The translations under genes were made by a program, and so were the position numbers. This document shows positions 1,109 to 33,132 of a stretch of DNA of 64,000 nucleotides, in pieces. This DNA is from Pseudomonadota bacterium (GTDB lineage: Bacteria; Bdellovibrionota; Bdellovibrionia; Bdellovibrionales; JACTMU01). The stretch spans positions 95,333 through 159,332 of the forward strand of contig JACTMU010000012.1 in assembly GCA_014584465.1 (NCBI GenBank), given 5' to 3'. Positions within the stretch are counted from its first letter, which is position 1. Each line of letters begins with the position of its first letter. Below the pieces are notes generated by a model. It made no database searches and had not been told where the DNA came from. It was given only the letters and a program-made list of their open reading frames with translations.

Positions 1109-1229
1109 AGTGCCAGGTTCCGTTTGCTGGACGCAGCGCTATCCAAGGCGATCGAACCTGTTTATCCTGTGAAACGTTGAGGGCCATCCGGAATTGATGC
1201 ATCATGCCCAGCAAACGGAACCTGGCACT
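1109..1229. repeat. 121-bp palindromic unit: perfect 22-bp inverted repeat around a 77-bp spacer
   Basis: Read directly. AGTGCCAGGTTCCGTTTGCTGG at 1109..1130 is the exact reverse complement of 1208..1229. The unit ends 3 nt before the MITE-like element. Confidence 0.85.
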
Positions 1230-1232
1230 ATT

Positions 1233-1417
1233 TAGGGGCTGTCCGGTAATTCCATTTTTGCCGATTTCTATAAGTTTTCCTTATACCTTCGTTGAGCCTC
1301 CTCGAGTTAGCGCCTCTGGCTAGCCCTAGCGCCTCTGGCTAGCCCTTCGTCGGCCCGCCTCGGTATAAGAAAAACTTATAGAAATCGATCAAAAAGCGAA
1401 TTACCGGACAGCCCCTA
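1233..1417. mobile_element. MITE-like palindromic element, full-length copy A (185 bp, non-coding)
   Basis: TAGGGGCTGTCCGGTAATT...AATTACCGGACAGCCCCTA. The terminal arms are ~55 bp (1233..1287 and 1362..1417) and about 90% complementary. In the central core the 19-mer TAGCGCCTCTGGCTAGCCC is tandemly duplicated (1308..1326, 1327..1345). Related copies sit at 16611, 29078 and 32175. Confidence 0.8.
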
Positions 1418-2191
1418 TTTAGAATCGTCGGTGACGAGAAGGATCTCAACTCTCCGATTCTTGGAGCGACCCTCTTCGGTTGCATTTGTGGCGATGGGCC
1501 GTTGATCGGCGTAAGAAAGGACGACGAGTTGCGAAGGCTTAAGAGCTGTATACTTGATCAGATAACGAACGATCTTTGCCGATCTTGCACCAGCAAGCTC
1601 CCAATTGCTCGGGTAGTTTGGAGACGAGATAGGCTGGTTGTCAGTATGGCCCTCTACTATGATTTTATTGGGAGCTTGACTTAGAATCTTAGCTATCTTT
1701 TCAAGCTCTTCATGAGCAGTGGGTCTTAACTTTGCAGAGCCAATGTCAAAGAGTGCAGAGGCGGCAAGGGATATGCGGGCACCGATGGCATCGTGGCGAA
1801 CTGTGAGTGAGAGGCCTTCTCCCGTTTTGCGTGAATCTTGCGAAGCTCCACCAAGTTGTCGCTTAAGGTAGTCTGCCAACTCGCTTGGTCCCGTCCCTTT
1901 CTTCGGAAAGAGATCCAGATCGACCTTGAGAGAAGCTCCCAATTGAGCCCCTTCATTGGTTGAACCGGGGCCAGAATTGCCATGGTTCTGGCTCTCCGGC
2001 AATCCTCCAAACCCCATTAGTGCAAAGGATCTCTTGATAGACTCCTCAAACTCCTTGCTCTTTTCAAGGTCTTTGTTGGAGATGGCATAGAGAACTGTGA
2101 AGAAGGCAAACAGTAGGGTTATGAAGTCAGCATAAGATACGAGCCAGCGTTCATGATTTTCCTGTTCACCGTGATGACGTCTCTTTCGCAC
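1415..2191 (-). CDS. motB: flagellar motor stator protein MotB (OmpA-like C-terminal domain)
   Basis: 258 aa. 'RWLVSYADFITLLFAFFTVLYAIS' is the MotB-type TM/plug region. The C-terminus 'GHTDNQPI...NWELAGARSAKIVRYL...NRRVEILL' is an OmpA-like peptidoglycan-binding motif. The start overlaps the motA stop by 1 nt. Confidence 0.9.
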   Translation of the reverse strand: MRKRRHHGEQENHERWLVSYADFITLLFAFFTVLYAISNKDLEKSKEFEESIKRSFALMGFGGLPESQNHGNSGPGSTNEGAQLGASLKVDLDLFPKKGTGPSELADYLKRQLGGASQDSRKTGEGLSLTVRHDAIGARISLAASALFDIGSAKLRPTAHEELEKIAKILSQAPNKIIVEGHTDNQPISSPNYPSNWELAGARSAKIVRYLIKYTALKPSQLVVLSYADQRPIATNATEEGRSKNRRVEILLVTDDSK

Positions 2192-3044: not shown

Positions 3045-3665
3045 GTGAATGTCGAACAGCTCAGGAGTGAGGACTATTCAAAAGTTGTGGTGGAACTTGT
3101 GAGATGGATTCTTGATTTAGACCAATGGCTCTTTGAGAAGATCAATCAACACTGGACCAACAGCTTGTTGGATATTGTAATGCCAATAGTGACAGATCTT
3201 ACAAAGATTTTGTGGGTGACCTACGGGATCATCCCTCTTGGAATTGGATTTTGGATCTACAAGCAGCGGCGTAAAGCTGTGCGAGTTGTCCTAGAGGTGG
3301 CATTGGTTTTGGCAATTTCAGATATGGTGGCTTTCCGAATCTTTAAGCCCATCTTTGAACGAGCGAGACCCTATCATGATTTGACGAATGCAATTCTTCG
3401 GACCTCCGAGCACGTCGGTCCGAGTTTTCCTTCAAACCATGCGACCAATTCCTTTGCGGTTGCAACACTCATTGTGCTTTATTACCCCAGACTGGCCCTT
3501 CCACTTTTTCTTTTGGCGGCACTGATCAGTTACAGTCGAGTTTATGTGGGGGTCCACTATCCTCTTGATGTGTGCGCAGGGGCCGCTTTGGGGACAGCGA
3601 TTGCATTGATCTTTCGTAAGGTCTCTGATCGAGCCACATTGTTTCTAACCCGGATCCGAAATTAG
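3045..3665 (+). CDS. PAP2-family membrane phosphatase
   Basis: 206 aa with a GTG start. PAP2 motifs are present: 'KPIFERARP', 'PSNH' and 'SRVYVGVHYPLDV'. Confidence 0.85.
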   Translation: MNVEQLRSEDYSKVVVELVRWILDLDQWLFEKINQHWTNSLLDIVMPIVTDLTKILWVTYGIIPLGIGFWIYKQRRKAVRVVLEVALVLAISDMVAFRIFKPIFERARPYHDLTNAILRTSEHVGPSFPSNHATNSFAVATLIVLYYPRLALPLFLLAALISYSRVYVGVHYPLDVCAGAALGTAIALIFRKVSDRATLFLTRIRN

Positions 3666-3674
3666 AAATGGAGA

Positions 3675-4142
3675 TCAAAAGTGGCGAAGCAGCAACTTGT
3701 CTTTGACCTGGCTCATCGTCATGGTGGTATGGCGAAGCCTACCACAGAGGAACTGAGCAATGGATCGATAAAACGGTGCTGCAATCGTAGGATTCTTCTC
3801 TAAGAGAGAACTCAAACCTTCATAGTTGATCTCTAAAAGTTTGGTAGCTTCAACTGCTGTCGCAGAGGCAGATCGGCTTTCACCATCTAGAAATGCCATC
3901 TCTCCAAAATGAAGACCCGTACCTAAAATTGAGATTTCAATGGCATCCCCCTCTGAACCTTCAAGATGAATTTTAACGGAGCCCATCTTTACAATGAAAA
4001 GTGAAGAGGCCTTGTCTCCCTGTGCAAAGATGTCCTGACCCGGTGAATAGAGTCGTTCCTTTGTAATTTTTTCAATCAACTCGAGAGCCTGTGGGGGCAT
4101 CTCTTTGAAGAAATAGAGGTTTTTGAGTAAATCGGTTGCCAT
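3675..4142 (-). CDS. cyclic-nucleotide-binding domain protein
   Basis: 155 aa. 'FGEMAFLDGESRSASATA' matches the FGE...R[ST]A phosphate-binding cassette of cNMP-binding domains. Confidence 0.8.
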   Translation of the reverse strand: MATDLLKNLYFFKEMPPQALELIEKITKERLYSPGQDIFAQGDKASSLFIVKMGSVKIHLEGSEGDAIEISILGTGLHFGEMAFLDGESRSASATAVEATKLLEINYEGLSSLLEKNPTIAAPFYRSIAQFLCGRLRHTTMTMSQVKDKLLLRHF

Positions 4143-5226: not shown

Positions 5227-6038
5227 AGAAGGGTCGCTTTAAAATGCTGATCATCTTTTGTGCTTTGTCGGTGGTGGGGGGCTATTTCTATTGGCAATAT
5301 AGAGAGTTGCCGAAGGTTCAAACACTTCGCTCATGCTTTAAAACCACACTTCATGGAGTTGATCTATGCTCAAAGAGCGGTTCGTATGTGAAGCTAAATA
5401 ATATTTCCGTGCATTTGAAACAGGCTGTGATTGTTTCCGAAGATTCCTCCTTTTACTACCATGAGGGTTTTGATTTTGAGGAGATCAAAAGCAGCTTGAG
5501 TACAAATTTTAAGGCAAGGAAGTGGCTCAGGGGGGCGTCCACCATCTCTCAGCAACTGGTAAAGAATGCCTTTTTGAATTCCGAGAAGAGTTTGCTTCGA
5601 AAGGCCAAAGAGGCTCTGCTTACCTATCATTTAGAAAAAAGCTTCACAAAAGATCAGATTCTTGAGCTTTATCTGAACGTTGTGGAATGGGGGCCTAAGA
5701 TATTTGGGATCAGACAGGCTGCACGCTACTATTTTAATAAAGTGCCAGATGATCTGGAAGTCCTTGAGTCTGCGTTTTTGGCGTTTCTGCTACCGAATCC
5801 GAAGAAATATCAGGTAAGTTTTCAAAAGGGGGCGTTGACTCGATTTGCACGAAAGCGTGTCAAAGATATTTGTCGAAAACTCTATCTCCATCAACGAATC
5901 AGTCGAGAGGTGTTCAATCAAACTCTTCGTGAAATCGATGATTTCCCTTGGAATGGAAAAGTTGATGAAGAGCTAGAGGAAAATGAAACTGAAGATGAAG
6001 ATACAGAAGAAGAATTCGAAGAAGGTCTTGTAATTTAG
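5223..6038 (+). CDS. mtgA: monofunctional peptidoglycan glycosyltransferase
   Basis: GT51 motifs 'EDSSFYYHEGFDFEEI' and 'GASTISQQLVKN'. ATG 5223 overlaps the upstream TGA (ATGA), so I chose it over the ORF-track start at 5199. The C-terminal tail is acidic. Confidence 0.85.
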   Translation: MKKGRFKMLIIFCALSVVGGYFYWQYRELPKVQTLRSCFKTTLHGVDLCSKSGSYVKLNNISVHLKQAVIVSEDSSFYYHEGFDFEEIKSSLSTNFKARKWLRGASTISQQLVKNAFLNSEKSLLRKAKEALLTYHLEKSFTKDQILELYLNVVEWGPKIFGIRQAARYYFNKVPDDLEVLESAFLAFLLPNPKKYQVSFQKGALTRFARKRVKDICRKLYLHQRISREVFNQTLREIDDFPWNGKVDEELEENETEDEDTEEEFEEGLVI

Positions 6039-6040
6039 TG

Positions 6041-6119
6041 CCTATCGCGAAACTTCATTTTGGCGGATTCACTTTTGACATTTTTGTCTCCATGTCTAAT
6101 TTCGGATCCAGGTTCTAAC
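6041..6119. repeat. ~80-bp repeat (family 2), left copy of an inverted pair flanking dus plus the tRNA
   Basis: The reverse complement of 6041..6119 aligns with 7407..7490 at roughly 85% identity by eye. The shared block is GTTAGAACC..GATCYGAAATTAG..ATGGAGACAAAAATGTCAAAAGTGAAT. It contains TTGACA (6075..6080), a 16-nt spacer, then TAATTT (6097..6102) on the + strand. Confidence 0.8.
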
Positions 6120-7173
6120 CATGACCAGAGACAAATGGAAGTTGAGGTTCCAGTTTCATTTGTTGAGATTTGTCTTCGAAGAAGTCGGAGATGAGGTCCT
6201 TGGCTGTTTCTATAGAGGTGGCTTTGAAAATCTTTTCTCGAAAAGAGCTAGAATGTGAAAAGCCGTGAGAGTACCAAGAGGAGAGTTTCTTGAGTTGAAT
6301 GAGCGCACGATGGGCCTGTACCTCTTGTTCAAGATAAAGATGGATCATCTGAAAGAGTTCTTTGTAGTTAAGATCAGGGCGTAAAGGTTGCCCCTGAAAC
6401 AGTGAGAGGGACTTTTGAAAAATCCATGGATCCTTTAGGGCCCCTCGGCCGATCATGATGCCCAAATAGGGGGCTCTTTTGAGATTGGAGACGGCTGTGG
6501 CAGGATCCACCACATCTCCATTCCCAATGATTGGGATGGGACTTTGATGGCATATCCAATCCAGGTAGTTCCAATCGACCATTCCGGAGTACCCTGCCGA
6601 ACGTGTTCGACCATGAATGCTGAGCCATAGAAGCCCACACTGATGTGCGATCTTGGCCACTTCGAGACTGTTCTTTGAGTGTTCGTCCCATCCGATTCGA
6701 ATCTTTGCCGTCACTGGGATGCGAGAGCGCTCCCTAACGGCCGAAAAGATCTTTTCAACCTGCAGGAGATCCTTAAGAATCGCAGCGCCTCCACCCTTTC
6801 GCACGACCTTGGGCACTGGGCAGCCAAAGTTGAGATCTACAAAATCAAATCCAAGATCAGAGACAATTTGAGAGGCCTCCGCAAGATCTTCTGCCCTTTC
6901 ACCGAAGAGCTGAGCTCCTATAGGACGCTCTATTTCAGAATACTCAAGAAGGTCGAACGAACGTTGATTTTGATAGAGTAGACTGCATGCGGACACGAGT
7001 TCTGTGGTCAATACACCCGCGCCCAACTCTTTCATAAAAGAACGAAAGATCCTCCCCGTAATTCCAGCCATGGGAGCTAAAAGAAAAGGATTTCTAGACA
7101 GGTAAGTCGTAATGGGCACAGAACGATCAAACTCATCGCCCCTAGCCTCTGGAGTCAAATTCAAGATTGTCAC
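6115..7173 (-). CDS. dus: tRNA-dihydrouridine synthase
   Basis: 352 aa. Dus-family segments 'LLAPMAGITGRIFR', 'VDLNFGCPVPKV' and 'LSIHGRT' are present. The stop codon (6115..6117) lies inside the family-2 repeat. Confidence 0.9.
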   Translation of the reverse strand: MTILNLTPEARGDEFDRSVPITTYLSRNPFLLAPMAGITGRIFRSFMKELGAGVLTTELVSACSLLYQNQRSFDLLEYSEIERPIGAQLFGERAEDLAEASQIVSDLGFDFVDLNFGCPVPKVVRKGGGAAILKDLLQVEKIFSAVRERSRIPVTAKIRIGWDEHSKNSLEVAKIAHQCGLLWLSIHGRTRSAGYSGMVDWNYLDWICHQSPIPIIGNGDVVDPATAVSNLKRAPYLGIMIGRGALKDPWIFQKSLSLFQGQPLRPDLNYKELFQMIHLYLEQEVQAHRALIQLKKLSSWYSHGFSHSSSFREKIFKATSIETAKDLISDFFEDKSQQMKLEPQLPFVSGHG

Positions 7174-7406: not shown

Positions 7407-7490
7407 GTTAGAACCCCGATCTGAAATTAGCAATGGAGACAAAAATGTCAAAAGTGAATTCCCGAAATGAGGTTTCGCACCAGGCACTAA
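7407..7490. repeat. ~80-bp repeat (family 2), right copy of the inverted pair
   Basis: See 6041..6119; the orientation here is opposite. Confidence 0.8.
7424..7451 (-). promoter_or_regulatory. sigma70-like promoter candidate for tRNA-CAU and dus
   Basis: The minus strand reads TTGACA (7451..7446), a 16-nt spacer, then TAATTT (7429..7424). It lies about 150 nt upstream of the tRNA 5' end. This rests on sequence pattern only. Confidence 0.35.
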
Positions 7491-14701: not shown

Positions 14702-15838
14702 ATGTCTGAGGTCTATAGCGGGGCTATTGATAAGGGTTTGGAGGGTGTTGTTGCCTGTACGACCGGCATTTCCTCGATTGTGGATGCGACACTATGCTAT
14801 TGCGGCTACACCATTGAAGATTTAGCTGCAAACTCAACTTTTGAGGAGGTCGTATTTCTTCTGTGGAATAAGAGACTTCCTAATCGTAATGAGCTTGAAA
14901 AGTTCACTTCGGAATTAAGAACACTGCAGTTCTTAGATCCGCAGTTTGTCGAGCTACTTAAAAAACTTCCTGCTGAGAATGTTCATCCGATGTCCTGGCT
15001 TCGAACGGCCACCTCAATGCTGTCGCTTTGGGATCGTAACACGCAGTTGGATACTCCAGAGGGCCGCAAAAACGTAGCGATCAATCTTGTTGCTAAGATG
15101 GGACTTTTGGTCACGGCGTTTTCTCGAATGAGGGAGAAGAAGGAGGTTGTGGCTCCTAAAAAGGATAGGAGCACAGCATGGAACTTTCTCTATACGTTGA
15201 CGGGAGAGGAGCCCAGCGAATCTCTTGTAAAAGACTTTGATGTGTGTCTTGTTCTGCATGCAGACCACGAACTCAACTGTTCCGCATTTGCGGCGAGGGT
15301 GACCGCTTCGTCACTAAGCGACATCTACTCCTCGGTTGTGAGTGCCATAGGTGCCCTTAAAGGACCACTTCATGGAGGCGCCAATGAGCAGGTTATGAGG
15401 ATGCTCAAGGATAAGGTCAAAGAGACTTCGCTTGCTCCGACATGGGTTCGTCGTGCTTTAGATAACAAAGAGAAGATTATGGGATTTGGCCATCGTGTTT
15501 ACAAGAATGGCGATCCTCGGGCTAAGATTTTACGAGATATGAGCAAAAGACTTTGTTCGCAAATTGGGCAACCCCAATGGTATGAAATGTCCGACATCAT
15601 TGATCAGACGGTGCGAAACGAAAAAGGATTGTTGCCCAACGTCGACTTCTACTCGGCCTCGGTGTATTACAGCATGAAGATCCCACTTGATCTCTATACC
15701 CCCATTTTTGCGGTTTCTCGCGTATCTGGTTGGTTGGCCCATGCCTTTGAGCAATATGCGAACAATCGAATCTACAGACCAAGGGGCGAATGGACTGGAG
15801 CCACTGGTTTGAAATGGAAGCCCCTCTCCGAACGCTAG
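14702..15838 (+). CDS. gltA: citrate synthase
   Basis: 378 aa. Contains the signature 'GFGHRVYKNGDPRA' and 'LHADHELNCS'. Confidence 0.92.
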   Translation: MSEVYSGAIDKGLEGVVACTTGISSIVDATLCYCGYTIEDLAANSTFEEVVFLLWNKRLPNRNELEKFTSELRTLQFLDPQFVELLKKLPAENVHPMSWLRTATSMLSLWDRNTQLDTPEGRKNVAINLVAKMGLLVTAFSRMREKKEVVAPKKDRSTAWNFLYTLTGEEPSESLVKDFDVCLVLHADHELNCSAFAARVTASSLSDIYSSVVSAIGALKGPLHGGANEQVMRMLKDKVKETSLAPTWVRRALDNKEKIMGFGHRVYKNGDPRAKILRDMSKRLCSQIGQPQWYEMSDIIDQTVRNEKGLLPNVDFYSASVYYSMKIPLDLYTPIFAVSRVSGWLAHAFEQYANNRIYRPRGEWTGATGLKWKPLSER

Positions 15839-15853
15839 TCTCAATTTGAAGCA

Positions 15854-15910
15854 AAGGTGCCAGGCGTATTTTTCGGATGCTGTGCATCCGAAAAATACGC
15901 CTGGCACCTT
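15854..15910. terminator. 27-bp perfect hairpin with a 3-nt loop followed by a T-run (gltA terminator / palindromic repeat)
   Basis: AAGGTGCCAGGCGTATTTTTCGGATGC-TGT-GCATCCGAAAAATACGCCTGGCACCTT, followed by ATGTTTTTGGGCTTTT. Confidence 0.7.
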
Positions 15911-15943: not shown

Positions 15944-16609
15944 ATGGTGCAGACACTGATCGTGACCCCAGATCAGCATAGATTTCAGGAGATCGAAGAG
16001 CTTCTCTCTTCTTTGGATCTGCAATTTGATCCTTTGATTACCGTCGAGCACCCCCTTCGACTTCCCGAAGGATACTACCGATACATACTGATAGATCAAA
16101 TGCTCTTTTCCCTTGAAAACATGTCGGAACTCATGGCCTTTCGGAAGCGCAATGAAGAGGTTCCACTTCTGTTCTTGGTAGACAAAGTTGAAAGCGCGAA
16201 CTTCGATTTTGTTCGAAGACTTGGGAACGCATTGATGTTGCAAAACCCTCTAGATCGCCAAGAATTGATCACGCTGACACTAAAAATGCTTTCGCACGAC
16301 CGGGTCTTTCATCGATTTCATAAACGCTTTTCCGTTGATCTGACAACCAATCTTGAGAACTTTGGAGATGGCAAAAAATCAAAAGCATATCTGAAGAACC
16401 TTTCTCAGGGCGGTGCCTTTGCGGTTGCCGACCGCACCTTTCGAACGGGAGATGTTGTATTTCTAAATATTACCTTAGATCAAATCAATAAACATCATCG
16501 GATGAATGCAAAAGTCGTTTGGACCGGTCGAAACGACTCAGGCGACAGCTGTGTCGGCTTACGTTTTGTAAGTGCCGAAGAGGTCTATCGAAATCTCCTT
16601 AAAATGTAA
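15944..16609 (+). CDS. PilZ-domain protein with degenerate receiver-like N-terminus
   Basis: I start it at ATG 15944 (MVQTLIVTPDQ...), because the ORF-track start at 15857 lies inside the hairpin. The C-terminus 'RFSVDL...LKNLSQGGAFAV...GDVVFLNITL' follows the PilZ pattern. Confidence 0.65.
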   Translation: MVQTLIVTPDQHRFQEIEELLSSLDLQFDPLITVEHPLRLPEGYYRYILIDQMLFSLENMSELMAFRKRNEEVPLLFLVDKVESANFDFVRRLGNALMLQNPLDRQELITLTLKMLSHDRVFHRFHKRFSVDLTTNLENFGDGKKSKAYLKNLSQGGAFAVADRTFRTGDVVFLNITLDQINKHHRMNAKVVWTGRNDSGDSCVGLRFVSAEEVYRNLLKM

Positions 16610-16610
16610 C

Positions 16611-16737
16611 TAGGGGCTGTCCGGTAATTCGCTTTTTTATCGATTTTGATAAGTTTTTCTTATACCGAGGCGGGCCGACGAAGGGCTAGCCAGAGGCGCT
16701 AACTCGAGGAGGCTCAACGAAGGTATAAGGAAAACTT
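16611..16737. mobile_element. MITE-like element, copy B (truncated, opposite orientation to copy A)
   Basis: It matches the reverse complement of copy A from the TAGGGGCTGTCCGG terminus through the core, with a single 19-mer, to ...GGTATAAGGAAAACTT. There are about 3 mismatches. The last ~38 nt of the far arm are missing. Confidence 0.8.
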
Positions 16738-17145
16738 CTACTTTTGTTCGATGCTGATGGCAAACTTCTTAATTCCTGCACGCTTTACGGCATCGATGAC
16801 GGAGACAACCTGACCATGCGGGACCTCCTTATCGGCAGCGATGACAGCTTGCAGGTCGGGCTTTTCAGCCACTGCCTTCTCAGCATAGGATGCAAGCGAA
16901 TCTAGATCACTGGGAGCCCCATTGAGTTGGATGGTTCCATCGCGAGACATTGAGATTTGAAGTGAAGTCGGAAGGGTGGACTCTCCTGAAGAGGCCTCTG
17001 GGAGATTTACATTGATGCTCGGTTGCATAATCATCGGAGCCGTCACCATGAAAATGATCAGAACCACAAGAATGATGTCCACAAATGGAGTTACATTGAT
17101 TGTGGCTATTGGGTCATCAGCATCGCCACCTAAGGAAGCTGCCAT
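16738..17145 (-). CDS. exbD: ExbD/TolR biopolymer transport protein
   Basis: 'INVTPFVDIILVVLIIFMV' is the TM segment, followed by a periplasmic domain. ATG 17145 shares 1 nt with the exbB stop (TGATG). Confidence 0.85.
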   Translation of the reverse strand: MAASLGGDADDPIATINVTPFVDIILVVLIIFMVTAPMIMQPSINVNLPEASSGESTLPTSLQISMSRDGTIQLNGAPSDLDSLASYAEKAVAEKPDLQAVIAADKEVPHGQVVSVIDAVKRAGIKKFAISIEQK

Positions 17146-29077: not shown

Positions 29078-29176
29078 TAGGGGCAGTCCGGTAATTCCAT
29101 TTTTGCCGATTTCTATAAGTTTTCCTTATACCTTCGTTGAGCCTCCTCGAGTTAGCGCCTCTGGCTAGCCCTTCGT
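29078..29176. mobile_element. MITE-like element, copy C (left half only)
   Basis: It matches copy A 1233..1326 with 1 mismatch and continues through CTTCGT as A does after its second 19-mer (1346..1351), so C carries one 19-mer. The match ends abruptly at 29176. The kinase stop codon (29165..29167) lies inside it. Confidence 0.85.
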
Positions 29177-31105
29177 AATCATTCGGACTTGGAGTTTTTC
29201 AGATTCTTTCTTGATGGCGTCATCTTCGTATTGGCTTGAGACTAATATAGATGAGTGCGAGATGTCCATTTTTTGGATCAGCTCCAAGCCATTTTCTGAT
29301 TGTCCTAATAACTCAAAGTCAACTAAGAAAAGGACATGGTCCTTGGCGTGAGTCTGGCACCAGATTTTGAAATCCGAACCAGAGGTAAAACTCAAAATAG
29401 GTACGCCTTGAATACGGTTTTTCCAAACTTGGTGGATCGATAGATCATCGTCTAATACGACCACAAGACTGTACTTTGACATATCTAACTGTTCTACGAA
29501 CCACGATGGAGAGTCCGCTCTTGGAAGATGAAGGTCAACAATGGTCCCCTGACCGGGTACGCTTTGAATGTTCAGTGTTCCTCCAATGTTCTCGATGGTT
29601 CTTCGCGCATGAAGAACTCCGATCCCAGATCCGCTTTGACTCTCTTTTTTTCCGAAAGATACAGGCATCTCTCCGAGTCTATCTAGAACATCTTTCTGAA
29701 TTCCAACACCGTTGTCTTGAACTCTAATGTGCACTTGATTCTTTGTGCCATTTACACGAACAACAATCTTTCCATGCCTATCTATAATTGCTTCAACCGA
29801 ATTGTTTATGAGATTGGACAGTGCTCGTTTAAATTCAACCTGATCAATCCTAGCAAAGCAACCATAGGATTGATTCAGATCAGAAGATATTTCAATGTCC
29901 ATTCGGTTTCGATATTGGACTCGTTTTTCAGAAATCAGCATGTCCACAAGAACGGGGATGAGTTCTGTTGTGGCAGTTGATTTTACAGATGCCGAAGTTT
30001 CCTTGTCACCTTGTTGAGTCAATTTTGCTTTACTCAAAAGTGTATTTGCTATGTCGTTGATTCGATTAGCTGCATTACGCAGGAGCAATCTTTTTTCTTC
30101 GGGGACCTGGTCAAGAGTATTGACAACCAAGGTAAGTGCAGAAAGTGGTGATCTTATGTCATGGGAAACCTGTCTTGCAGTTTGTTCCAAGAGCAAAACT
30201 TTCTCGGATTTTAGTTTTTGCAAATGAAGTTCGTGAAGATTTCTCTCTAATGTGTCAACGGCATTTTCAAGAATTCTAATTTCATTTTTTTCACCCTCCA
30301 AAGGCGAACTTTGAGCCTTATGCAGCACCTTGTTGGATAGATCCTCAATAGGTTTGACAACGAGATCTTTGAGTCTGTGAATTCCATAAACAACTGAAAG
30401 AGTCGTAACCAAGAAGATGCCGCCCAGCATTCCAAAAAAAGAGATATAACCGTTTTCCGAATCCTTAATGGTAATTTGAATCGAATCCACCTGTTCGTGA
30501 TTTTCAAACGAGCCGACAAAGATTTTGTTCTCAAATTGACTTTCCAAATCAGAAGTGGAAATTGCAACAAAAAGAACACCTACTGTTCTAGCATTAGGGC
30601 CCGACTGCTGTTGATCATCGAGACGCACAATCTTTTTGAGAATGAGAAATCCATTTACAGAGGAATAAGGAGCTCGCTCAGTGTCTCTTAACAAAACTTG
30701 TTCTAGGTCAACTGTGGAAACGTTTCCCAAATTTCCAGTTCGAATCAACTCTTGGTAATCCTTCGATACGAGCATCCAATACGTTTGTAATGATTGTTTC
30801 TGTACAAATTCTGTAATTCTGCCATAGACACGGTTTTCAAGAAATGGACGCATGACATCGGGTGCCAATAAAAAATCCGTGACTTCAGAAGATCGCAAAA
30901 AAAGCTCTGCATCGTTTTCTAAAAAAGTGAGCTGTCTCTGAATATCAGAAACAATTTGTCGGTTTTGAAATTCAACCATATTTTTGCGACGAGTTTCAAC
31001 ATTATAAATTAAATATCCAAAGACCAACGACGCCAAACTGATGGGAAGAATGCCAACAAAAAATTGAATGGATATAAATTCTTGTTTCAAAGTTCGTCTA
31101 TTCAT
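29165..31105 (-). CDS. hybrid sensor histidine kinase (2 TM, HisKA, HATPase, C-terminal receiver cut short)
   Basis: 646 aa. H-box 'QVSHDIRSPLSAL', N-box 'NLINNSVEAI' and G-boxes 'DNGVGI' and 'GSGIGV'. The receiver is 'LVVVLDDD...FLVDFEL...SILVSS...VRMITKG*'. Confidence 0.85.
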   Translation of the reverse strand: MNRRTLKQEFISIQFFVGILPISLASLVFGYLIYNVETRRKNMVEFQNRQIVSDIQRQLTFLENDAELFLRSSEVTDFLLAPDVMRPFLENRVYGRITEFVQKQSLQTYWMLVSKDYQELIRTGNLGNVSTVDLEQVLLRDTERAPYSSVNGFLILKKIVRLDDQQQSGPNARTVGVLFVAISTSDLESQFENKIFVGSFENHEQVDSIQITIKDSENGYISFFGMLGGIFLVTTLSVVYGIHRLKDLVVKPIEDLSNKVLHKAQSSPLEGEKNEIRILENAVDTLERNLHELHLQKLKSEKVLLLEQTARQVSHDIRSPLSALTLVVNTLDQVPEEKRLLLRNAANRINDIANTLLSKAKLTQQGDKETSASVKSTATTELIPVLVDMLISEKRVQYRNRMDIEISSDLNQSYGCFARIDQVEFKRALSNLINNSVEAIIDRHGKIVVRVNGTKNQVHIRVQDNGVGIQKDVLDRLGEMPVSFGKKESQSGSGIGVLHARRTIENIGGTLNIQSVPGQGTIVDLHLPRADSPSWFVEQLDMSKYSLVVVLDDDLSIHQVWKNRIQGVPILSFTSGSDFKIWCQTHAKDHVLFLVDFELLGQSENGLELIQKMDISHSSILVSSQYEDDAIKKESEKLQVRMITKG

Positions 31106-32174: not shown

Positions 32175-32337
32175 TAGTCTGTTCGGAAAATTCTGCGATG
32201 CAAATTGCGAAGGTGTTTTTTATCAGATTGAATAAAAATCGACGAAGGACTAGCCAGAAGCTAATCCGAGGAGATCTTTGTTCAATCTGGTGAAAAAGAA
32301 CGAGGAAGTTGTGTCGTAGAATTTTCCGAACGGACTA
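32175..32337. mobile_element. MITE-like element, copy D (divergent subfamily, 163 bp)
   Basis: Termini are TAGTCTGTTCGGAAAATTC...GAATTTTCCGAACGGACTA. Its core CGACGAAGGACTAGCCAGAAGCTAATCCGAGGAG matches CGACGAAGGGCTAGCCAGAGGCGCTAACTCGAGGAG of copies A and B. The arms differ in sequence from A but remain self-complementary. Confidence 0.7.
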
Positions 32338-33132
32338 TATGTAGTTTTTTTTCTGCCGTATTTGAATCAAAACTTTGGAGAGCTCCTCAAAGCCCTCGCC
32401 ACCTGGTTTTTGTGTTACAAATTGAGGCTTGTGATGCATTTGGTGAACAAAGTTTTGAACATTTGCAACGCCAACTGAAAACGGAAAATATCCAAACATA
32501 GGTTCATCGTTTGGCGAGTCGCCGCAGAAGATCACCCGATCTTTGCATTCGTCCAAATTGAGTTGATGCTCATTTTGAAAATAGATCTTACAGGTCGAAA
32601 GTTTGTCGTACTCGCCGAACCATCCATTGACATGAATGGAACTTACTTTGGCTTGAGCGCCATGTTTTTGAAAGATCGAAACAATTTGATTCACGCTTTT
32701 GGGATCCAGTGGGGGGACATCTTCACAAAAATCAATGGCAAGATCCATTTGTCGACAAAACTGATCAGAAGCCACTTGAGCTCCTGGAATGTTGTTAAGC
32801 ACCTCTCCCTCGATCTTCTTAAGAAGTTGGCGGTTCTTCTTTCGCAACTCTTCCTGAACTAGATAAACGCGTTTCATCTGACCCTTGAGTTGACGAAAAT
32901 AGAGCCCTCCATTTTCACCAACAACTCCATCCACAGGCCAAAAACGAGCTATCATTTCACACCACCCCGCGGGGCGACCGGTGATGGGCACAATCTGAAA
33001 TCCGTGATCATTGAGTTTCCAAAGGGCATCGTAGGCTGGACTTTTCAATTTGCCATGATCGGTGAGGGTGTCATCGATATCGGTAAGTACCCATCGTATG
33101 GAGCTTGCATCCAGCTCCTTCAGTGACTTCAT
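32335..33132 (-). CDS. HAD-IIB family hydrolase (sugar-phosphate phosphatase-like)
   Basis: I start it at ATG 33132 (MKSLKELD...). HAD motif I is 'VLTDIDDTLTD', and 'ITGRP' and 'CGDSPNDEPMF' are also present. The stop codon is the terminal TAG of copy D. Confidence 0.8.
   Translation of the reverse strand: MKSLKELDASSIRWVLTDIDDTLTDHGKLKSPAYDALWKLNDHGFQIVPITGRPAGWCEMIARFWPVDGVVGENGGLYFRQLKGQMKRVYLVQEELRKKNRQLLKKIEGEVLNNIPGAQVASDQFCRQMDLAIDFCEDVPPLDPKSVNQIVSIFQKHGAQAKVSSIHVNGWFGEYDKLSTCKIYFQNEHQLNLDECKDRVIFCGDSPNDEPMFGYFPFSVGVANVQNFVHQMHHKPQFVTQKPGGEGFEELSKVLIQIRQKKNYI

Follow-up and report, generated by a model that had tools for sequence, protein, structure and literature searches.

A palindromic repeat at the 3' end of motB

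In a 64,000-nt stretch of a Bdellovibrionales genome, called the window below, a motB-like gene takes its stop codon from a 185-nt palindrome (1233..1417). The question examined here is whether this sequence is a mobile element or a device that serves its host. The window corresponds to positions 95,333 to 159,332 of contig JACTMU010000012.1 in a metagenome-assembled genome (MAG; GCA_014584465.1) of 3.75 Mb in 120 contigs, with a GC content of 46.8% and a completeness of 99.7% by marker genes. The analysis reported here makes it reasonably likely that the palindrome is a high-copy, non-autonomous bacterial miniature inverted-repeat transposable element (MITE), moved in trans by an enzyme encoded outside this assembly, with a core that acts in cis as a folded module. 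It is probably not a device kept for the benefit of the host.

The palindrome (copy A) is a full-length element of a family designated T1, with the pyrimidine-rich strand of its core on the plus strand, and equals the 166-nt canonical T1 form plus a 19-nt tandem duplication. Its arms of about 55 bp (1228-1287 and 1362-1422) are 88% complementary and enclose a 74-nt centre, and as RNA it is predicted to fold at -112.8 kcal/mol (z = -15 versus shuffles). The 19-nt terminus TAGGGGCTGTCCGGTAATT occurs four times in the window, against 0.00 occurrences expected from shuffles, namely at both ends of copy A, at one end of copy B (16611) and at one end of copy C (29078). The duplicated unit, TAGCGCCTCTGGCTAGCCC, is located at 1308..1326 and, directly after it, at 1327..1345, both on the plus strand; within the window the tandem is found in copy A only, and its junction occurs a single time in the entire genome. 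The motB-like gene (1415..2191, minus strand) stops at a TAG (1415-1417) within the terminus of copy A. A first-pass annotation, made from the sequence alone, had described the palindrome with its arms and centre, the tandem 19-mer restricted to copy A, the terminal TAG shared with motB and the lack of a transposase in the window. All of these points were borne out, the last one for the four transposase families searched (PF13358, PF01609, PF01797 and PF13359), which have no match there.

A BLASTN search of the whole genome with the 185-mer returned 174 loci, and many T1 copies are 97-100% identical to one another; the element is therefore highly repeated, and its recent spread is supported. 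The families present are: T1, with 155 termini of the TAGGGGCTGTCCGGTAATT type; T2, with 200 termini of the TAGTGCCTGGCGCGAAACC type, which has about 80% in common with T1 over the inner 90 nt and differs from it in the outer arms; T4, with about 20 copies of a shorter version of the same core; and T3, an 83-nt palindrome without the core, with 45 termini genome-wide. Once merged, T1, T2 and the core-matching loci amount to 270 loci and 22.1 kb, i.e. 0.59% of the genome. Several contigs start inside an element. Since no contig is shorter than 2.6 kb, collapsed repeats, insertion sequences (IS) included, are probably absent from the assembly.

Termini, target site and evidence of mobility

The elements end in TAG(R)GCC inverted termini and read TAGGGGCTGTCCGG...CCGGACAGCCCCTA. 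Outside the first G of the 155 T1 termini, a T is present at -6 in 145 cases, an A at -5 in 139, a T at -2 in 151 and an A at -1 in 149; position -7 is enriched in C (74/155). The flanks of T2 termini show the same TANNTA pattern, whereas those of T3 do not. An identical 6-mer stands on both sides of 25 of the 36 complete T1 pairs, when chance agreement of the NN is 1 in 16. Judged from these flanks, the target is a symmetric (C)TANNTA(G), which is duplicated so that one copy stands on either side of the insert. In sister families from other genomes, the duplication is of TA in CTAG, or of TTA/TAA, instead. All of these centre on TA, as do the duplications of IS630- and IS5-type transposition.

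Copy A is framed by the target copies TATTTA at 1229..1234, directly outside the element's first G, and TATTTA at 1416..1421, of which 1416-1417 together with C1415 form the minus-strand TAG stop of motB. A reconstruction of the empty site gives ...AAA TAG as well, which implies that the insertion left the MotB protein unaltered. A different palindromic unit with AGTGCCAGGTTCCGTTTGCTGG arms (1109..1229) adjoins copy A, and its GCACTA end, together with the adjoining TTTA, makes up the TATTTA (TANNTA) site that copy A occupies. Elements often abut another one in this way, the target being recreated by the GCACTA-NN-TA end of the latter. Complete Bdellovibrio-like genomes differ by species at one orthologous gene end, where some carry an element and others none. 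The two T1 arms differ by fixed mismatches that are inherited by all copies, which rules out regeneration of the second arm by fold-back.

The published features of bacterial MITEs are a size below 200 bp, terminal inverted repeats, terminal 5'-TA-3', a target-site duplication and a long stem-loop (PMC2229807). The present element is dispersed, measures 166 nt (185 nt in copy A), is non-coding, with stop codons in its core on inspection, and has terminal inverted repeats with 5'-TA-3', a target-site duplication and a long stem-loop, and thereby shows every one of these features. The earlier reading of a MITE-like, recently spread and non-autonomous element is thus supported by copy number, sequence identity, target duplication and the fact that no cognate transposase was detected.

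A phylum-wide core within unrelated arms

Similarity to other families of the order was detected in the inner part of the element, the comparison set consisting of families other than its own. The 18-mer TTAGCGCCTCTKGCTAGC, which is essentially the duplicated 19-mer, recurs in several Bdellovibrionales MAGs, and the same centre lies inside unrelated arms in at least eight other MAGs. There, the 18-mer occupies the tip of 160-190-nt hairpins whose arms have no similarity to T1, whose ends are TAG(R)GCC and whose centres have two flanking blocks in common with T1. In copy A these conserved blocks are CCTTCGTTGAGCCTCCTCGAG (1286..1306, plus strand), on the 5' side of the mismatch ladder described below, and TTCGTCGGCCCGCCTCGG (1346..1363, plus strand), on its 3' side. 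A covariance model (R1), built from an alignment of ten element families, finds the core in 47 of the 151 sampled Bdellovibrionales genomes, belonging to 11 of 13 families, and, elsewhere in the phylum, in nine sampled genomes from other orders, these being partial samples in which at most 28 candidates per genome were scored. Complete Bdellovibrio-like genomes carry the core as well, in about 5-20 copies each according to BLAST with one element.

Alignments fitted to the model show nearly constant flanking blocks, CTCTTCGTTGCTCSTCSTC and TTCSTCSTCGCGCCTCGAT, while the apical stem varies (GGTTAGC/GCTAGCC, GGCGTAC/GTACGCC, GCTGTAC/GTACAGC, GAATTGGC/GCCAGTC, GCGTTTGC/GCAAGCGC). According to these alignments, the duplicated 19-mer constitutes the apical hairpin of the phylum-wide conserved core; in copy A it has the stem UUAGC/GCUAG and the loop GCCUCUG, and the 19-nt duplication is an exact doubling of this hairpin. 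Matches of the 18-mer in Tannerellaceae, Burkholderia and Gammaproteobacteria were set aside as chance, the surrounding core being absent, and, when viral contigs were scanned for the right core block, five pattern matches were obtained, none of which fits the model. The comparison with Rfam 15 (cmscan) that had been proposed with the first-pass annotation placed the element in no family: copy A gave only chance microRNA hairpins (E >= 0.06), and eight elements from other genomes gave no match. A sigma-54 promoter, an integration host factor (IHF) site and an attC site in the centre were discarded by eye on account of spacing or consensus, as was a peptide open reading frame (ORF), which would have no start codon.

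The core, of about 60 nt, is made up of the apical hairpin and of a ladder of three Watson-Crick pairs split by tandem mismatches. RNAalifold, applied to ten families, predicts the apical hairpin with compensatory changes. In the ladder, complementarity in antiparallel register links the S positions of one block to those of the other, a left CGTCGTC corresponding to a right CCTCCTC and vice versa, and mixed and T-A cases follow the same rule. Across 59 distinct sequences (alignment A4 columns), the counts are as follows: for pair 38-117, CG 25, GC 25, UA 2, GU 1 and other 5; for pair 41-114, CG 29, GC 20, UA 3, AU 1, GU 1 and other 3; and for pair 31-120, CG 30, GC 8, UA 4, AU 1, GU 1 and other 13. 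Ladder cells are paired in 87.8% of cases versus 46.6% in shuffles (0/500 reach the observed value) and at most 63% when the partner is slid; related sequences are non-independent, so that the significance against shuffles is overstated and the slide control and the counts of changes on both sides are more reliable.

The bases between the ladder pairs are near-invariant: they read T.C/C.T on the pyrimidine-rich strand and, on the purine-rich strand, form three units of the tandem mismatch 5'-GA-3'/3'-AG-5'. Tandem GA/AG is a stable sheared-pair motif in both RNA and DNA. The combination of covarying pairs with invariant mismatches in these alignments indicates a folded single strand, and this would be the selected form, because duplex DNA gives no reason for the ladder pattern. 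Furthermore, the arms of nine diverged paralogues in one complete genome stay paired, with 17 of 33 pairs changed on both sides, which would fit selection on the element for its hairpin, as known from REPINs.

Decay by internal deletion

Forty-four alignments drawn inward from the termini stop at consensus positions 90-99, compared with about 21 full-length elements, and the preferred breakpoint is just 3' of the apical hairpin. Because most half copies retain both target copies and 1-12 nt of the distal terminus, they are interpreted as products of internal deletion, for which the structured core is a hot spot. The same internal breakpoint (...GGCGCTAACTC) is shared by at least 33 T1 copies, for instance those at C41:41445, C43:7654, C52:39855 and C97:98436 (contig and position in the assembly). 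Plausible causes of the hot spot are stalling in gap repair after excision, or processing or cleavage at the tip of the palindrome. Eleven perfect mini-palindromes of 35 nt were also observed, each consisting of two T2 termini head to head (GTGCCTGGCGCGAAACC-N-GGTTTCGCGCCAGGCAC; e.g. C112:10923-10957 and C118:7533-7567), and these are probably extreme remnants of internal deletion.

The other copies in the window are incomplete or belong to another family. Copy B (16611..16741, minus strand) is a truncated T1 element that lacks positions 1-37 and lies between convergent genes, with TAACTA as its left flank (16607-16612) and the stop codon of a minus-strand gene (16738-16740) at its truncated end. 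Copy C (29078..~29180, plus strand) is the left half of a T1 element, with TATCTA as its left flank; it breaks off directly 3' of the apical hairpin, without a second TATCTA target copy, and from its sequence we assign it to the class in which the deletion extended into the flank. The fourth member is an element of the sister family T4 (~32185..32353, minus strand; TATAGTCCGTTCGG... arms), which contains the shorter version of the same core at 32213-32301. The covariance model accordingly finds four cores in the window (A, B, C and the T4 element). The count of four copies made at first thus holds at the level of the core, although B and C are truncated and the fourth copy belongs to a sister family; the near-identity claimed for B and C holds for these partial copies, which are 96-98% identical to copy A.

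A histidine-kinase-like ORF (29165..31105, minus strand) enters the truncated copy C and stops at a TAG within the element core. In its last 160 residues, Pfam (E <= 0.001) recognises only the end of HATPase_c and no receiver domain. Judging from the sequence of this locus, the deletion at copy C, which has no second target, may have taken with it not only the distal half of the element but also the gene's true 3' end.

Position relative to genes

The gene context was taken from a simple ORF map (3280 ORFs, 89% coding). The 270 loci are distributed over convergent (66), tandem (105) and divergent (42) gaps, overlapping ORFs (34) and contig edges (23). Convergent gaps represent 16% of the intergenic regions and 31% of the intergenic elements (66/213), an enrichment of about 2-fold, and divergent gaps contain 20% of these elements. 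All four copies in the window touch a gene 3' end; the statement that this is always the case holds for these four, whereas genome-wide, with 42 divergent loci, it is a tendency only. The situation at motB is a typical one: at 20 of the 155 T1 termini, the adjacent ORF takes its TAG stop codon from the element, a further 10 ORFs terminate at the TAN of the target, and 25% of T1 termini overlap with the end of an ORF. The gene-end positions and the donated TAG stop are explained by a TA-rich, stop-codon-like target combined with selection against disruptive insertions.

Proposed mechanism and alternative explanations

In the mechanism that we favour, an enzyme encoded outside the assembly would insert the element in trans at (C)TANNTA(G) and duplicate the target. 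The element has spread recently in a burst and decays by internal deletions, and its core is conserved across the phylum while the arms of about 55 bp are replaced wholesale. The core would fold as a single strand, either single-stranded DNA (ssDNA) or RNA, would be needed for the propagation of the element itself and could be bound by the mobilising enzyme or by a host factor. We infer a cis-acting role in propagation rather than a host RNA function because the stems are maintained, the orientation is neutral with respect to GC skew and the transcription bias was not reproduced. A wider claim, that the core is a new structure-specific recognition module for ssDNA or RNA and that the elements form a superfamily of mobile hairpins across the Bdellovibrionota, swapping both arms and ends and moving through a folded single-strand intermediate with the help of an enzyme or host factor so far linked to no known MITE, is put forward only tentatively.

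Several observations weigh against this mechanism. In this MAG, neither DDE_3 (PF13358) nor DDE_Tnp_4 has a match, and the DDE_Tnp_1 genes are IS1380-like, IS1634-like or fragments; the IS1634-like element was rejected as a partner on account of its unrelated inverted repeats and the IS1380-like region for having no TAG(R)GCC-like terminus, and the IS630-like genes of a related MAG are not bounded by matching ends. The sequence does not reveal how many bp are duplicated, since symmetric cuts of 2, 4 or 6 bp give an identical product, and the duplications of the sister families differ, so that more than one type of enzyme might be involved. The purine-rich strand folds better in 38 of 45 cases and is also favoured by the GA/AG mismatches, whereas two conserved G.U pairs, present on the pyrimidine strand only, favour the latter, so that either strand may be the functional one. 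Of 61 tandem contexts in this genome, 40 have the purine-rich strand in sense orientation (p = 0.02). Finally, the conservation and covariation from which a role of the core in mobilisation is inferred would fit a host-level RNA function equally well.

The remainder of the search for a mobilising enzyme followed the earlier proposal to look elsewhere in the genome for an IS with matching termini, and none was detected in this assembly. An autonomous element or transposase with matching ends was found neither in this MAG, which has no contigs below 2.6 kb, nor in related MAGs. In this MAG, termini that face each other at a distance of 0.4-6 kb and have equal flanks have nothing but ordinary genes between them; in a related MAG, solo termini separated by 1.1 kb lie on either side of a gene for a permease and not for a transposase. 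Two IS1380-family transposase genes lie in tandem at C80:10009-13148 (494 and 525 aa), with no recognisable inverted repeats around either.

That the repeats are instead host-level RNA elements, i.e. gene-end hairpins acting as terminators or as blocks to 3'-exonucleases, which has been reported for REP, ERIC and Correia elements, with a core that binds a host protein or nuclease, appears unlikely, even though several results speak for it: the very stable predicted hairpin, the enrichment in convergent regions, the sense-strand bias of the purine-rich strand in this genome, and the stems kept by old paralogues. Tandem GA mismatches are, moreover, typical of protein-binding RNA motifs. MITE RNAs are also known to affect neighbouring transcripts (PMC2229807). 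The idea of a bidirectional terminator, raised with the first-pass annotation, was not upheld: a scan for Rho-independent terminators made no call for the long hairpin and gave only a weak 6-bp site within one arm, at the level of shuffles, no U-tract follows the hairpin, whose ends run into TANNTA and not into a T-run, and the orientation relative to transcription is not consistently biased. In 22 tandem contexts of other genomes, the purine strand is sense or not in a ratio of 10:12, so that the bias of 40:21 seen here is not robust. Furthermore, 42 loci are divergent and others overlap ORFs, no Rfam family matches, and the near-identity of more than 100 copies argues for a recent burst and not for locus-by-locus selection. 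The hairpin, predicted at -113 kcal/mol, may have a stabilising side effect on mRNA.

Two other explanations are improbable, to a similar degree. According to one, the element is REPIN-like and is moved as a folded single strand by a RAYT, the HUH/Y1 transposase associated with repetitive extragenic palindromic (REP) sequences. The genome does encode a RAYT-like Y1 transposase (C107:36791-37501, 237 aa; NF047646 at 66.9 bits, below the cut-off of 80), the T2 termini (TAGTGCCTGGCGCG) resemble the T3 repeat that flanks it (TAGGTGCCAGGCG), and compensatory change that preserves a hairpin is a REPIN signature; yet this gene is flanked on both sides by the core-less T3 (TAGGTGCCAGGCGTATTTTTCGGAGGCAGTGAATCAA; region C107:36650-37700) and not by T1, T3 flanks lack the TANNTA pattern, and T1 and T2 show clear target duplication. 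With HUH single-strand insertion, as in IS200/IS605, a target duplication is not expected. The likeness of the T2 termini to T3 leaves a slight probability of a RAYT role for T2, against which the target duplication speaks. A replication-strand bias, as expected of ssDNA insertion, was looked for and rejected, the orientation of the core being independent of GC skew, and a second Y1 gene beside a T4 element is a coincidence of this genome, as the core is present at 0 of 29 homologue loci elsewhere. Terminal TAGs that often serve as stop codons are known from GTAG-tagged REPs (PMC3733652), a point in favour of this explanation. The RAYT-like gene and T3 look like a classical REP/REPIN-RAYT system that coexists with the MITEs. 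According to the other explanation, it is the core that would move or function as a unit, for example as a compact structured module of RNA or DNA or as a ribozyme-like motif, and that would gain arms locally, T1 and T2 being one amplified case. This would agree with a core far more conserved than the arms across the phylum and with one copy in a complete Bdellovibrio-like genome whose outer arm occurs nowhere else in that genome. It agrees poorly with the repetition of whole elements, arms included, with defined TAG(R)GCC ends and target duplications here and in several MAGs, with arms that are homologous but diverged, not unrelated, in the complete genome examined, with the fixed T1 arm mismatches, which leave no room for fold-back regeneration, and with the Rfam result, which gives no ribozyme or other RNA family.

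Comparison with known elements

The best analogue of the element is the Correia/NEMIS family of Neisseria, a likeness drawn from its description (PMC2229807) and not from sequence comparison. Both are shorter than 200 bp and non-coding, with terminal inverted repeats, 5'-TA-3' ends, target duplication and a long stem-loop, and both are dispersed in hundreds of copies, often at gene ends. Both also contain an internal functional motif, which in the 155-bp form of Correia elements is an IHF site (PMC2229807). The present element differs in that (i) its target is TANNTA and not plain TA, (ii) its hairpin extends over the whole arm of about 55 bp and not over an inverted repeat of about 25 bp, (iii) its internal motif is a covarying fold with invariant tandem mismatches and not a duplex protein site, and (iv) this motif is common across a phylum to families with unrelated arms, whereas Correia elements belong to one genus. 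ERIC/IRU elements, again by description, resemble it as imperfect palindromes over their whole length (about 127 bp in ERIC) with TA ends, target-site duplication, a wide taxonomic range and no known transposase, and the conservation of the ERIC hairpin has been discussed as selection on RNA (PMC2229807). However, ERIC has one consensus throughout, while only the centre is common here and the arms are interchangeable, and no orientation-dependent effect is indicated.

With REPIN/BIME-RAYT systems the element has in common hairpin doublets in the hundreds and the compensatory maintenance of stems, and BIMEs have a conserved linker between inverted arms. It differs from them in the target duplications and symmetric TA ends of T1 and T2, and in that the repeat beside the RAYT-like gene is a different one; neither a RAYT flanked by the same repeat nor insertion without target duplication, which characterise REPIN/REP-RAYT systems, was found. 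GTAG-tagged REPs are 20-40-bp palindromes with an unpaired GTAG at one end (PMC3733652), whereas the present element has 166 nt, a TAG at both ends paired with the opposite CTA, and a variable base before the TAG. RUP of Streptococcus pneumoniae, an IS630-Spn1-dependent MITE, is similar in its TA-containing target and terminal inverted repeats; it serves as the model for MITEs that an IS630/Tc1-type enzyme mobilises in trans, and the CTAG/TA sister families in other genomes look to be of this type. The TANNTA pattern separates the present element from RUP, as do the lack of DDE_3 in the MAG and the lack of one with matching ends in the related MAG; an IS630/Tc1-mariner MITE is likewise contradicted by a duplication that includes the variable NN and by the absence of a PF13358 match. 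The GC stem followed by a U-tract of a Rho-independent terminator and membership in an Rfam family were not found either.

For Bdellovibrio, the literature searches yielded no paper that deals with MITEs, REPs or REPINs. The combination of a phylum-wide core with interchangeable arms, a ladder of pairs and mismatches and a TANNTA target has no description in Rfam 15 or in the literature searched. Bacterial MITEs are usually confined to a genus and defined by their ends, whereas the present elements can exchange their ends and arms and have as their invariant part an internal fold, found across a phylum of predators. In this genome, it is the entire element, fixed arms included, that amplifies as a MITE with target duplications. 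If the mobilising machinery recognises this fold, the fold would provide a handle for finding that machinery and would constitute a new case of structure-specific DNA mobility beside IS200/IS605, REP-RAYT and integron attC sites. In practice, elements that make up about 0.6% of a genome break short-read assemblies and confuse gene callers in Bdellovibrio-like MAGs, give stop codons to about 1 in 8 neighbouring genes, and truncate or overlap ORFs.

Other observations

In a complete Bdellovibrio-like genome (G118:C1:1136664-1138164, locus L117), the genes that flank an element are about 650-700 kb apart in related genomes, so that this element lies at a synteny breakpoint. In a related MAG, an unrelated c-di-GMP-I riboswitch (70.8 bits) was found at L025:2620-2709 (SXSU01000106.1), about 1.7 kb from a core element. 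Within the window, a copy of T3 (15854-15910) forms a perfect 27-bp hairpin after a gene that ends near 15838. A further repeat type (…TAACCCGGATCCGAAA…), one more component of a genome dense in repeats, is present together with T2-like termini at 3640-3680, 6038-6121 and 7407-7487, where it forms 61-nt inverted repeats, 1.3 kb apart, around a segment with dus and a tRNA gene.

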